DNA of 19,232 bases from Thermodesulfobacteriota bacterium. GTDB lineage: Bacteria; Desulfobacterota_D; UBA1144; Nemesobacterales; N074bin48. Made by a program: the position numbers and the translations under genes. Of this stretch, positions 2,785-19,232 are shown piece by piece. Numbering within the stretch: position 1 is the stretch's first letter; each line of letters opens with the position of its first letter. The stretch spans positions 1 through 19,232 of the forward strand of contig JBFFSH010000048.1 of NCBI GenBank assembly GCA_041572575.1. Reading direction: 5' to 3'. Below the pieces are notes generated by a model, which worked only from the letters and a program-made list of their open reading frames with translations, searched no databases and had not been told where the DNA came from.

Positions 2785-3018
2785 ATGAAAGATAAATTTG
2801 ATATTGATTTTGATGTAAGGGTAGTGGACCGTAGTATTAGAGATAGCAAGATAACCAGAAAGGAGTACGATGAGAAGCTCGAAGCTTTAGAAGATCTAAG
2901 TGAATTGGCCGAACCGCTTGTTATTGAAGATGATACAGAGCAGGAACAGGATGAGAATGAAGATACAAACGAAACTGCTGAGCAGCAGTTAGAAGAAAAT
3001 GTAGAGGAACAAGAATAA
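2785..3018 (+). CDS. Small acidic hypothetical protein (77 aa)
   Basis: Strong RBS AGGAGGAG at 2770-2777. N-terminal DVRVVDRSIR..ITRKEY..L..L.D followed by an E/D/Q-rich tail. The stop overlaps the next start (TAATG). Confidence 0.8.
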   Translation: MKDKFDIDFDVRVVDRSIRDSKITRKEYDEKLEALEDLSELAEPLVIEDDTEQEQDENEDTNETAEQQLEENVEEQE

Positions 3019-3227
3019 TGCCCTGGGAATACAAGGTTGTTTCTATTGAAAGCTTAATACCGGATGATGGTGATCATGATATTGCCGTATCAAAACAGGA
3101 CGCACAAAACAGAAAAGAAAAACTGTCAAACAATATGCAGGATAGTCTCAACAATCTTGGAAATGACGGGTGGGAACTCGTATCTATATTCAGTGATTTC
3201 GGAATATTTAAAAAACTAGCAAACTAA
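3018..3227 (+). CDS. DUF4177-like small protein
   Basis: WEYKVV ... LNNLGNDGWELVSI ... IFKK pattern; translationally coupled to the upstream gene. Confidence 0.75.
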   Translation: MPWEYKVVSIESLIPDDGDHDIAVSKQDAQNRKEKLSNNMQDSLNNLGNDGWELVSIFSDFGIFKKLAN

Positions 3228-16399: not shown

Positions 16400-16705
16400 T
16401 TATTTTTGCAGCTTTTCTATTAATCCATCTATTATAATTCCCGAAATATTATCAGGGTGTACGCTAACTTCAGCATCCGGGTTATCTTTGTAATACATAT
16501 CTTCGTTCTTTACTTTTTCGCGCACAAGATCATTTATGTTTGTAGAGCCGCTGTATACATAGTCTTTTTTGATCCACCTGTCCAGTGCCATATGTAGCCC
16601 TGCGGGGTCTGCATTTTTCACAGCCTCTATCTCGCTCTCATCAAGCGTGCCTATAATATGATCAATTGCTTCACCCAAATCGCTAAATTCTTTTTTCCCG
16701 CTCAT
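16400..16705 (-). CDS. Small hypothetical protein, DUF6794-like
   Basis: L.EAI..I...L, H..L.RWI and HPDNISGIII patterns; it ends 2 bp before the meaB start. ATG 16705 is preferred over TTG 16729. The family name is from memory. Confidence 0.6.
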   Translation of the reverse strand: MSGKKEFSDLGEAIDHIIGTLDESEIEAVKNADPAGLHMALDRWIKKDYVYSGSTNINDLVREKVKNEDMYYKDNPDAEVSVHPDNISGIIIDGLIEKLQK

Positions 16706-16791
16706 ATCAGGATAAAAATAATATATCAATATAATAGAATTTATAGGATAAATAATCTATTATTTAATTATAAGCTCTAAAGGAGATAAAT

Positions 16792-17010
16792 ATGAAGAAA
16801 TACGAATACGAAATTTTGTTTCATAGAAATGTTAAAGGACACGTCACATGGTATTTTGCCTCCAAGCCGAACAAGAAAGTGGGCACAAGCCTTATAAAGA
16901 TACTTAACAAACTGGGCGCAAAGGGCTGGGATGCCAGCATATCGGGCACACTTGAGGCCGGAGCTATTGCAGAGGTGCTTCTTAAAAGAGAGAAGGGGAA
17001 GAAGAAGTAG
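16792..17010 (+). CDS. DUF4177-like small basic protein
   Basis: RBS AGGAG at 16781-16785; KYEY ... LNKLGAKGW ... LLKRE pattern. Confidence 0.7.
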   Translation: MKKYEYEILFHRNVKGHVTWYFASKPNKKVGTSLIKILNKLGAKGWDASISGTLEAGAIAEVLLKREKGKKK

Positions 17011-17029
17011 AGTTTATCCTTTTTTTATA

Positions 17030-17156
17030 TGTCATCTCGAACCGAAGGTAGAGATCTGCTTTTTCCTAACACACTGAGCTAGTCGAAGTGTGAGAACAGC
17101 AATTACTTCCCACCACTGTCATTGCGAAGTTCACGAAGTGAACTGTGGCAATCTCG
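17030..17156 (+). repeat. Cluster of three REP-like extragenic palindromes
   Basis: 17030-17057 TGTCATCTCGAACCGAAGGTAGAGATCT; 17070-17092 CACACTGAGCTAGTCGAAGTGTG; 17117-17156 TGTCATTGCGAAGTTCACGAAGTGAACTGTGGCAATCTCG, which has a perfect AGTTCAC-GAA-GTGAACT hairpin. All three contain CGAAG. Confidence 0.75.
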
Positions 17157-17255
17157 CTTTTATAATGTAAACATATCCCTCTGAATAAATAAGTCTGTTT
17201 AGGCACAGGCCAAATGAGAACTACCCTTCACTTAGAATAAAGTCAGAATAAACCC

Positions 17256-17318
17256 CTTAGACCCATAAACCCAAAAACCCCGGGTTAAACCCTATACCTT
17301 TGGGTTTTTGGGGTTAAG
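17256..17318. repeat. 63-bp repeat, left copy (inverted relative to 18708-18770)
   Basis: CTTAGACCCATAAACCCAAAAACCCCGGGTTAAACCCTATACCTTTGGGTTTTTGGGGTTAAG; 55/63 ungapped identity to the reverse complement of the right copy. Confidence 0.95.
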
Positions 17319-17320
17319 TA

Positions 17321-18013
17321 TTAAATTAATCCCCTCAATAGTTTCTCCTGATCTTCTTTTAATACACTCTCTGGTGGATTGTCCCAATTAAATCTTTGAA
17401 ATAGCCATATTGTATGATCAAGTGATAGTTTAGATGAGTTCGCAATCAGTTCTTCAATAGTCAGAGGGTATTCACGATCTATTTTCTCAATTGCACAGAT
17501 ATACTCTGCTAATATATGACGTCTAATATCTAACATGAATAATTTCCTATCTCTCGTATCGTGTAAATTTATATATATTATGCACTCATTTCCTAATAAT
17601 CCTTTGTTGGCTAACCTAGATGCAAATTCAAATATCTCTGTAATTTTATACAATGTGGATAGTATCGATAATGATTTGCCATTTGGTAATTTCCATCTTC
17701 TGTCTTCCGATACCTGATCTTGCCAGTCTTCAACTAGACCAGAATAATGAACGAACATTCCATTTTGGTAATAACGCCAATATTCTACAAAGTACGACCA
17801 ATCTAATGGATGTTCTATAAAATCTAATCCAGTTGTAGGAGGCTTATCATCAGGGTAAAAGGGAAATTCCCAACCACGAAGGCTTACTTTTAATTCCCTA
17901 ATAATTTCCTTACATTTAGCAGTGGATTCAATGAAATTGTCTTTATATATTGTAGGCCTAATTATAACTTCCCAATGACCGCGTCTTTTAATTTTATCTA
18001 AAATTTCGCTCAT
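17321..18013 (-). CDS. Hypothetical aromatic-rich protein (230 aa), partner of the Schlafen/AlbA_2 gene
   Basis: Its ATG directly follows the upstream TAG (0-bp gap). Motifs are GHWEVIIRP, SLRGWEFP, EYWRYYQNGMF, EIFEFASRL and LFQRFNW. No TM segment or signal peptide is apparent. Confidence 0.85.
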   Translation of the reverse strand: MSEILDKIKRRGHWEVIIRPTIYKDNFIESTAKCKEIIRELKVSLRGWEFPFYPDDKPPTTGLDFIEHPLDWSYFVEYWRYYQNGMFVHYSGLVEDWQDQVSEDRRWKLPNGKSLSILSTLYKITEIFEFASRLANKGLLGNECIIYINLHDTRDRKLFMLDIRRHILAEYICAIEKIDREYPLTIEELIANSSKLSLDHTIWLFQRFNWDNPPESVLKEDQEKLLRGLI

Positions 18014-18646
18014 CTATTTAATATCCTTCAGCTTTTCTTCAAATTTACGCTTGTCCTCATCCTTTCTAGACTTAGATACTTGTTCTTGTGTAATGCCTAG
18101 ATTCTCCATGATCATTAATTGTTTTTTTAATTTTTTTTCTACGGCCATATCCAATATTTCACGCATCTCAGATTGACTTGGGACTTCTATTGTTTCAGGT
18201 TTTCGATAGGACCTAGTATATACAGCTCCATCCTTCAAAATAATGTTGTTGTTCGGATTATAATCCTTTTTGCATAACACAGGAATTTCATTAAATTCGA
18301 ATACCTTAATAACAGCAAAACTCTTATTTTTATATGGAAGCTTAAATACATCAATATTTACATAGGGATCAGAATAAACATCTACAAAACTTGCAATATT
18401 ATCTTTTGTATATGTATTTAAAACATTGTTTTCGAGACCTGTACATGTATAACTATCATCATCATTACGATCCACTCCAATTATTATATTACCTCCATCG
18501 CGAATGTTGCTCATTCCTAAGATTGTTTTAGTTATTTTCGCTTTGAATTCTTTATTTCTATTATTCCATGGAATAGACGTCTTAAAATCTATATTTCTTC
18601 TTTCCTGTCCGAATTCCAGAATATCTTTTAAATCATTTGCAGTCAT
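18014..18646 (-). CDS. Stand-alone Schlafen/AlbA_2 domain protein
   Basis: ERRNIDFK, KTILGMSN..DGGNIIIGVD, TGL, DP, F.VIKV, P...K and G.VYTR match the AlbA_2 (PF04326) pattern. It ends in a short charged helical tail and has no ATPase domain. Confidence 0.88.
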   Translation of the reverse strand: MTANDLKDILEFGQERRNIDFKTSIPWNNRNKEFKAKITKTILGMSNIRDGGNIIIGVDRNDDDSYTCTGLENNVLNTYTKDNIASFVDVYSDPYVNIDVFKLPYKNKSFAVIKVFEFNEIPVLCKKDYNPNNNIILKDGAVYTRSYRKPETIEVPSQSEMREILDMAVEKKLKKQLMIMENLGITQEQVSKSRKDEDKRKFEEKLKDIK

Positions 18647-18681
18647 AAATATATTTTATACAAGAATAGTAGTTGATCAAC
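18647..18681 (-). promoter_or_regulatory. Probable leaderless sigma70 promoter of the cassette operon
   Basis: Minus strand TTGATC (18680-18675), 16 bp, TAAAAT (18658-18653), 6 nt, ATG (18646), with no Shine-Dalgarno. A perfect palindrome GTTGATCAAC (18672-18681) covers the -35. Confidence 0.5.
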
Positions 18682-18707
18682 ATTAAATAGGGTCATCTCT
18701 CTGTATC

Positions 18708-18770
18708 CTTAACCCCAAAAATCCAAAGGTTTAGGGTTTAACCCCTGAGTTATGGGTTTTTGGGTCTAAG
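18708..18770. repeat. 63-bp repeat, right copy
   Basis: CTTAACCCCAAAAATCCAAAGGTTTAGGGTTTAACCCCTGAGTTATGGGTTTTTGGGTCTAAG; inverted partner of 17256-17318. Confidence 0.95.
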
Positions 18771-18855
18771 CAGTGCAAAAACTCCCAAAAGTGAAATTTT
18801 TTCAAATATTTTCAATTTCAGCGAAAAAAGTAAATCGGCGTAACTTGCTGTAAAT

Positions 18856-18902
18856 ACACAATATATGGTATAGTTTTGAAAATTGTATACAATATGTGTT
18901 TG
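18856..18902 (+). promoter_or_regulatory. Tandem NrdR-like boxes
   Basis: ACACAATATATGGTAT (18856-18871) and ATACAATATGTGTTTG (18887-18902) versus consensus acaCwAtATaTwGtgt. The starts are 31 bp apart, a typical NrdR tandem spacing, and the second box overlaps the -35. Confidence 0.65.
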
Positions 18903-18927
18903 ACAAAAAAGCTGGATTTGGTAACTT
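18900..18927 (+). promoter_or_regulatory. sigma70 promoter
   Basis: TTGACA (18900-18905), 16 bp, TAACTT (18922-18927), with extended -10 TG at 18919-18920. Confidence 0.65.
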
Positions 18928-18963
18928 TATAACTGGTACAACTGCGAAAGCACTTGAAAAAAG

Positions 18964-19000
18964 GCTCTCAGAACTTCTAAGTTTTGAGGGCTTTTTTTTT
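18964..19000 (+). terminator. Intrinsic terminator or attenuator hairpin
   Basis: GCTCTCAGAACT-TCTA-AGTTTTGAGGGC, a 12-bp stem with two G:U pairs, followed by T9. An A-run lies upstream, so it may be bidirectional. Confidence 0.8.
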
Positions 19001-19032
19001 GGTTCACTCCACGGGGTCTTTTTCTTTAACTA

Positions 19033-19091
19033 CGAGATTGCCACGTCGCGCACAGTCTTGATTTAAGAATTGCGGATGCGCTCCTCGCAAT
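19033..19091 (-). repeat. REP-like palindrome, inverted relative of 17117-17156, truncated at its outer end
   Basis: CGAGATTGCCAC (19033-19044) is the exact reverse complement of 17145-17156, and TCGCAAT (19085-19091) is the reverse complement of 17121-17127. The expected following GACA is missing. Confidence 0.7.
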
Positions 19092-19232
19092 TGTAGATGT
19101 CACATAATTCGCAGACAAAATACATAAGTAATTAAGTAGAGGGGGTATTTTGTTAAGATGCGAATAAACAGGAGTGATTTAAAACTTAAGAAAAACTATA
19201 TACAGAAGTACAGGTTTTTAATCAGTCAGTAC
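19092..19232 (+). mobile_element. Left end of a probable IS481-family insertion sequence
   Basis: It begins TGTAGATGTCA (IS481-family elements have TGT...ACA termini) exactly where the REP-like repeat breaks off, and a transposase-like ORF starts 66 bp inside. Confidence 0.55.
19158..19232 (+). CDS. 5' end of a probable IS481-family transposase, running off the window
   Basis: AGAGGGGG upstream; the frame is open to the window end as MRINRSDLKLKKNYIQKYRFLISQY. The NYIQKYRFLI..Y segment resembles N-termini I recall from a subgroup of IS481 transposases. Only 25 codons are visible. Confidence 0.55.
   Translation, partial: MRINRSDLKLKKNYIQKYRFLISQY

Follow-up and report, generated by a model that had tools for sequence, protein, structure and literature searches.

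In satellites of the SaPI/PICI kind, whose initiator is a self-loading helicase, the origin directly follows the 3' end of rep; its AT centre is flanked on either side by two or more iterons that point in opposite directions, and these iterons are bound by the C-terminal winged helix of the initiator, as described in parts of two studies (PMC9371898, PMC6092414). In REPIN-RAYT systems, dispersed intergenic palindromes are associated with a conserved gene that is present in few copies and derives from a mobile element, as set out in part of one source (10.1101/2021.07.10.451892). For prokaryotic Schlafen proteins, a section of another source gives Ex4(E/D)xK as the nuclease motif and counts 97.1% of its set as fusions (PMC13056530). 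How defence and other accessory genes are exchanged at chromosomal hot spots in the absence of a transposase is described, in a portion of a further source, as unresolved (PMC13586616).

The window, i.e. the whole 19,232-nucleotide stretch of DNA analysed here, is contig C48 of genome G000 (G-numbers denote genomes, C-numbers contigs of G000 and L-numbers loci in the genomes compared; G001 belongs to the same genus, and g13 is a sister genus with ten genomes). A preliminary description, made from the sequence alone, had read two repeats in it as the bounds of a mobile Schlafen defence cassette. We indeed found that the two arms are 63 bp each, inverted and gapless with 8 mismatches, one lying 2 bp beyond the last stop codon and the other 61 bp ahead of the first start, around two genes that are AT-rich (GC 0.30 and 0.33 versus 0.45 in meaB), with no transposase or recombinase gene between the arms and no target duplication in the cassette flanks. 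The pair is the longest inverted repeat of the window, and against the genome the arms gave BLAST E values of 3e-11 to 2e-16. Taken singly, an arm is imperfectly palindromic (19 of its 63 positions differ from its own reverse complement), so that the two can equally be aligned as direct repeats, at 70%. The layout of an arm, hereafter the unit, consists of a word pair eight bases apart, a GGGTTAAACCC core and an inverted word pair. Two labels given earlier to the surroundings had to be corrected: the small plus-strand gene at 16792-17010, called DUF4177, has no Pfam match at E<=0.1, DUF4177 matching instead at 3018-3227, and the "NrdR-box" stretch matches the leader of the helicase gene in two relatives and not that of an nrd operon.

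Table. Features of the window (coordinates in the 19,232-nucleotide stretch)
Feature	Position	Strand	Basis or remark
Unit L: dyad of a TAGACCCA/TAAACCCA word pair, a GGGTTAAACCC core and an inverted word pair	17256-17318	+	BLAST and profile
Unit R: inverted relative to L, 8 mismatches	18708-18770	-	BLAST
Partner gene, 230 aa, no Pfam family	17321-18013	-	homologue searches, predicted fold
Stand-alone Schlafen (AlbA_2) nuclease gene, 210 aa	18014-18646	-	PF04326 E 3e-11; motif E15-x4-D20-x-K22
Sigma-70-like promoter TTGATC-16-TAAAAT	18653-18680	-	weak: 12 sites versus 10.1 in shuffles
Three REP-like palindromes beside unit L, outside the unit	17028-17160		
Conserved leader	18772-19002	+	upstream of helicase gene in relatives L150, L169
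Two NrdR-box-like 16-mers 31 bp apart (18856, 18887), and hairpin with T-run	within 18772-19002		
End of multi-copy IS, about 1 kb, TGT end, in REP-like repeat after GCAAT	19092-19232	+	

The REP-like patch beside unit L resembles what we take to be GTCATTGCGA-type REPs, and G001 has a similar patch at the same site. A small gene with a sub-threshold DUF6794 match (16400-16729) lies between meaB and this patch and is absent at the G001 site. The promoter-like sequence ends 6 nt ahead of the Schlafen start, which weakly suggests that the Schlafen mRNA is leaderless. On the window, Rfam gave nothing near gathering score and PADLOC no match. Cassette depth was 42-46 against 49-54 in the flanks in two DNA runs, and two RNA runs contain the cassette stretch as contigs, a presence that does not show transcription.

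BLAST revealed four further units of the arms' word type in G000, on C82, C21 (two) and C31. The C31 unit, which shares its word with the window, overlaps the 3' end of a 482-aa helicase gene (C31:635-2083), one of two intact helicase genes in G000. Its predicted domains are DnaB_N, AAA_25 and a winged helix; a profile built from ten homologues hit RSF1010 RepA (E 6e-6), a winged helix (E 1e-3) and the N-termini of DnaB proteins, with invariant positions that we take to be Walker A, Walker B and an arginine-finger-like residue. Relatives came from alignment searches, single-protein locus scans giving none. The gene is present at 16 loci in 11 of 120 genomes of the phylum, and we observed, reading by eye, that units of the same geometry with other words end 13 of the 16 loci; one of the remaining three is cut by a contig end, one (C77) is unitless and one could not be resolved by eye. 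In metagenomes, 24 helicase loci were found, and a unit was present in 11 of the 15 for which the 3' end was located, some of these being near-duplicates. Two relatives (L047, L161) are integrase-linked helicase islands beside tRNA genes, and terminase genes follow the helicase at L160; a viral contig set held distant helicases only, at up to about 40% identity over short stretches. The dN/dS ratio was 0.11-0.26 in six solo-helicase pairs, i.e. the solo gene is under purifying selection.

The unit itself is of a known kind, and judging from this arrangement it is very probably the satellite-type origin of the helicase. As in PICI/SaPI, the putative origin lies directly 3' of the helicase gene (C31; 13 of 16 loci), with short iterons, two on either side and in opposite directions, round an AT centre, here a short TATA-like core; the predicted protein ends in a C-terminal winged helix, and some relatives have an integrase, HTH_17 and a tRNA site. 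In contrast to PICI/SaPI, the motor appears to be a RepA-like AAA_25 with a DnaB N-terminal domain rather than SF3/MCM-like, the unit is only about 63 bp, most copies lack an integrase, and 8-19 chromosomal origin copies of several word types lie away from the gene. The two copies in the window are displaced, probably to a place upstream of the helicase gene. No primase gene was seen beside solo helicase copies, and no integrase, att, regulator/xis or packaging genes of a whole PICI were found in the window or in C31 1-5000; such features are partly present in L047 and L161. A literature search, outside which most subscription papers lay, found no integrase-free initiator with dispersed multi-specificity origins bounding variable genes.

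The words vary between lineages, and our comparisons indicate that they go with the winged helix rather than with the ATPase core. Among 22 genes (L017, which has no core, being left out of this correlation), word similarity correlated with winged-helix identity after removal of core identity (partial rho 0.34), with a permutation p of 0.0002 that is overstated because kin are not independent; alignment A2 leaves out L034, whose coordinates were wrong, and loci fetched twice were counted once. In the 13 sister-genus-type genes, rho was 0.02 between word and core and 0.44 between word and winged helix. L054 and L055, 98% identical in the core and 39% in the winged helix, differ in their words, whereas L053 and L055, 71% identical in the core and 82% in the winged helix, share one. 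The GGTCA units fit the winged-helix type of C77, and helices L056, L154 and L158 carry GGGTCA. Both arms of the unit co-vary, with two-sided changes in 13 of 20 pairs and 90% pairing versus 28-45% in slid controls, as scored on a structure taken from the same alignment. We infer that the winged helix binds the word. Since the winged helix adjoins the unit, one crossover would carry both, so that their co-swapping reflects linkage, not binding. The natural series of winged helices and words would also supply a set of initiators and origins, each pair being predicted to have a specificity of its own.

Profiles seeded with 13 units detected 19 unit sites in G000 at E<0.05, six of them outside the seeds, against a best E of 2.1 in the reversed genome. 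These sites are dispersed and clustered: 13 of the 19 lie less than 2.5 kb from another, with a random expectation of 0.6 and a maximum of 8 in 10,000 trials. Units occur singly, as direct pairs, as inverted pairs and in clusters. A second word type (GGTCA) forms another inverted pair, round two AT-rich genes on C22 with no target duplication; the same type stands in direct orientation round two genes on C66. BLAST of a 76-mer in 60 relatives was empty because words differ between lineages, and an exact-pattern scan of a genome contig collection returned five hairpins, all unrelated. One cluster, C21:34896-35586 (L016), holds five units, belonging to two word types and nested about a geneless 233-bp stretch of GC 0.20, and its first two units recur as a doublet on C98. 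At C3:722-956 (L017), a helicase remnant consists of the winged-helix end and a unit; beyond them, where the contig stops, lies an AT-rich fragment of a P-loop ATPase gene. A ACCCACAACC hairpin lying 3' of two integrase-like genes (C61, C71) was put aside as a separate family; in the form ACCCACAACC...GATTGTGGG it is found at C61:1999, C62:426 and 2352, and C71:2747; it precedes secreted-looking genes, and on C62 two direct copies bracket two genes.

In the wider phylum, unit model R1 matched 13 of 120 genomes, among them all ten of g13, and model R2 matched 6 of 120, both models having been built from lineages that they match. Distinct unit sites numbered 14 in G046, 19 in G015 and 8 in G058. 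A full-length helicase match was present in 6 of the 10 g13 genomes, interrupted in two, with no integrase or tRNA at these g13 loci. Units recur at the same intergenic sites across genomes, and the cargo at these sites changes. At the cysS site, G015 has an inverted pair tight round a gene of 300 aa and GC 0.34 (L328), a tight fit like that of the C22 pair, and G046 has a direct pair holding a GIY-YIG gene (L333). At the pntB site, a single unit in G086 (L360) contrasts with several units and cargo elsewhere (L334, L354, L051): G083 has three units together with a kinase and one further gene, and in G052 the units accompany HicAB and the helicase. At the trxA site, the helicase lies between direct units, 98.6% identical, in G052 (L052) and is missing in G086 (L362), and at the alr site it is common to three genomes with varying cargo. 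The window's own site in G001 has two units with other words, followed by the contig end. Near-identical units within 3 kb reach 98.5-98.6%, and L327 consists of tandem unit-plus-gene paralogues. Genes between or beside units encode HicAB, DUF433-PIN, GIY-YIG, DUF4760, many IPTL-CTERM proteins and a second Schlafen protein (L351). Another such gene, unnamed and winged-helix-like, lies beside units at L015:1151-1801 and L365:2121-2765 (35% identity), loci from two different families of the order.

The right flank of the cassette points to a connection with the helicase. The leader listed in the Table is 85% identical over 196 bp to L150 and 76% over 172 bp to L169, where a unit precedes it too. 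It is followed by the IS end; the other end of this IS lies on three contigs, two of which, C31 and C75, continue with GCAAT. Beyond the IS, C31 runs on with sequence like that of the small-ORF region in L149, L150 and L169, after which comes the helicase, and from this we infer that the window probably joins C31 across the IS, C75 fitting the target duplication of the IS as well as C31 does. The likely order would be unit L, cargo, unit R, leader, IS, small ORF, helicase and unit. Ends of this IS are found on C14, C17, C31, C36, C75 and C105 as well as in the window, and 5 of the 7 lie in the stem of a GTCATTGC REP-like repeat. NrdR boxes are two 16-bp boxes at 15-16 bp spacing, as stated in part of one source (PMC12051234). 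The NrdR-like 16-mers of the leader have a spacer of 15 bp, and an nrdR gene was found in G000. They score 14 and 10 of 16 against an NrdR consensus; a noisy scan gave 27 such loose pairs genome-wide versus 11 and 18 in shuffles, and among the 27 a box of at least 14 of 16 against that consensus is found only in the leader and upstream of a gyrase-like gene and the ribonucleotide reductase gene. These results are only suggestive of NrdR control of the helicase leader. Extra NrdR-box-like leader copies with no helicase behind them occur at C36:22613-22741 of G000 and C18:1428-1492 of G001.

We regard it as somewhat probable that satellite-type helicase modules, scattered at shared intergenic sites, act as likely re-replication and recombination points at which accessory genes are gained, duplicated and swapped, and a little better than an even chance may be given to an active contribution of the units to cargo turnover. 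The helicase would bind the unit through its winged helix, unwind and load at the TATA-like core, and recruit the host primase by its DnaB domain. Forks from such ectopic origins, combined with 60-70 bp of near-identity between units, could produce duplications, inversions and the uptake of unit-bearing or adjacent foreign DNA, cargo entering either when near-identical units recombine or when forks that started there are repaired. Clusters, both orientations and a helicase moving between sites are expected from such a process, and the inverted pair of the window would be one of its products, not the defining ends of an element. Counting against this explanation are the C77 helicase, whose own 3' end bears no unit, the persistence of units in genomes in which no full helicase was found, and the contigs of the four runs, with neither altered junctions nor a raised cassette depth; it could also be that the REP-rich patches holding units drive the turnover instead. 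In a bolder form, which we offer tentatively and as more doubtful than probable, the gene is a domesticated initiator: an integrase-free self-loading helicase, possibly NrdR (dNTP)-controlled, fires at scattered origins of 63 bp, with interchangeable winged helices reading their words, and locally re-replicates and reshuffles defence, toxin-antitoxin and surface-protein genes, capturing genes without a recombinase. If true, this would be a helicase-driven counterpart of REPIN-RAYT and integrons. Since the slots have borders of 63 bp that are defined, an enzyme as candidate and a protein-DNA code that can be read, the question of transposase-free swapping becomes testable in vitro.

A rather unlikely alternative is that the units are inert leftovers of satellites that repeatedly integrated at the same hot spots and decayed to origins and some cargo, with no present role of units or solo helicase. 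The integrase-bearing and terminase-linked relatives would fit such a history, as would the truncated or interrupted helicases that retain a unit (C3, G055, G085, G058, G086) and the units kept where no full helicase was found (G046, G020, G084 and G001, genomes 74-96% complete); a winged-helix query of five helicase-less genomes, run without a positive control, was empty. It also agrees with our search for the altered junctions foreseen in the preliminary description: contigs from four runs of four studies, two of which may be the source of the assembly, contained no credible inverted, excised, circular or empty form, contigs being apt to drop rare forms. Two candidate joints, 17162-19092 and 17318-18714 (short side 20-21 letters), are accounted for by other repeat copies. 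However, no tRNA was found in the window or the ten other loci scanned, and the solo genes have no integrase beside them. The near-identity of units within 3 kb, the tandem paralogues of L327, the strict dyad geometry across words and the dN/dS of the solo helicase likewise argue against decay.

It is less likely still that some other enzyme, the Y1 transposase of the genome or GIY-YIG nucleases, spreads the units as passengers of the REP/REPIN kind, with cargo arriving separately at permissive intergenic sites. REPIN-RAYT is the closest behavioural analogy, both having short, palindromic, dispersed, lineage-restricted non-coding units and a conserved low-copy gene of mobile origin, and units do sit in REP patches and mixed BIME-like clusters, with GIY-YIG genes between them in L053, L057 and L333. 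In contrast to REPIN-RAYT, the partner here would be a helicase, not an HUH transposase, the units bracket gene cargo, the helicase gene itself changes site, and copies number tens, not hundreds (19, 14, 19 and 8 sites in four genomes). An ordinary REP, which the preliminary description had named as the finding that would undo its reading, does not clearly fit, as the copies are few (about 19 in G000) and clustered. The single Y1_Tnp gene of G000 has no flanking units and is flanked by a different repeat, a GIY-YIG query of G000 was empty, and the words track the helicase winged helix. This lone Y1 gene (L367, C6:51959-52282) is flanked by GGGTCAGGCTTTG repeats, which recur near units in G001 and L169.

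That the arms delimit, as its two ends, a single non-autonomous or invertible Schlafen element driven by a recombinase or transposase, as first proposed, is very improbable: the tight fit round two genes, the similar pairs at C22 and L328 and an inverted ffh-rplS block with inverted units at its ends are in its favour, but direct pairs occur as often as inverted ones (13 and 10 of 28 hand-picked neighbouring pairs, 5 being unclear), many units are single, target duplications are lacking, no recombinase is linked to solo units, no inverted or excised form appeared in the contigs, and the gene pair occurs without units at all 80 other loci inspected and in G055. What stands of the mobile-element reading is a repeat family that brackets exchangeable cargo and likely has a trans-acting protein, for which the candidate is a helicase-initiator rather than a recombinase or transposase. 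The block concerned, ffh-rimM-trmD-rplS, is inverted between C66:5504-10250 of G000 (L019) and C39 of G001 (L344), with inverted GGTCA-type units near both its ends in G000; this is one case.

The attC sites of integrons have RYYYAAC...GTTRRRY ends with extrahelical bases, and dif sites are 28 bp long. Like integron cassettes and pdif modules, the present loci form arrays, differing from genome to genome, in which short palindromic sites enclose one or two genes. Unlike integron cassettes, they have no RYYYAAC/GTTRRRY pair with extrahelical bases, no integron integrase and a mixed orientation, and unlike pdif modules their units are not 28-bp dif sites. The earlier remark that the arms are not IS ends, dif or attC was correct, and the mixed orientation and lack of a duplication at the window or C22 speak against MITE- or IS-derived units.

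The cargo pair of the window is independent of the units. Its partner gene was found in 2 of the 120 phylum genomes; the pair is rare among relatives, and its syntenic conservation there without the repeats, which the preliminary description had named as a refutation of its reading, is not clearly seen. The Schlafen gene abuts the partner gene in the same frame (TAG ATG), and the single TAG (18014-18016) parts the two, so that fused and split forms differ by one codon here. As in prokaryotic Schlafen defence proteins, AlbA_2 carries Ex4(E/D)xK in the 210-aa protein and stands beside a domain with which it forms a fusion in certain genomes. In contrast to the fusions that dominate the published set, as far as the cited part of that report goes (PMC13056530), the split form prevails here: among the best 80 of 147 partner relatives in a genome contig collection, Schlafen lies directly upstream in 72, split in 69 and fused in 3. 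Fourteen loci with flanking direct repeats were inspected; in three the repeats resemble tRNA att duplications, in one attC sites. The pair is widespread and a probable anti-phage system, in which the split Schlafen would act with an unnamed partner domain that is predicted to be a sensor or regulator. The fold of the partner is modelled confidently (pLDDT 96) and has no clear solved relative. A relationship of the partner to AdoMetDC was not accepted (best VIA Z 6.0; no Foldseek match under E 0.001). The partner has 60 stand-alone homologues and is fused to Schlafen in two longer proteins and to TIR in one, and its structural look-alikes are fused to HTH or DUF4062.
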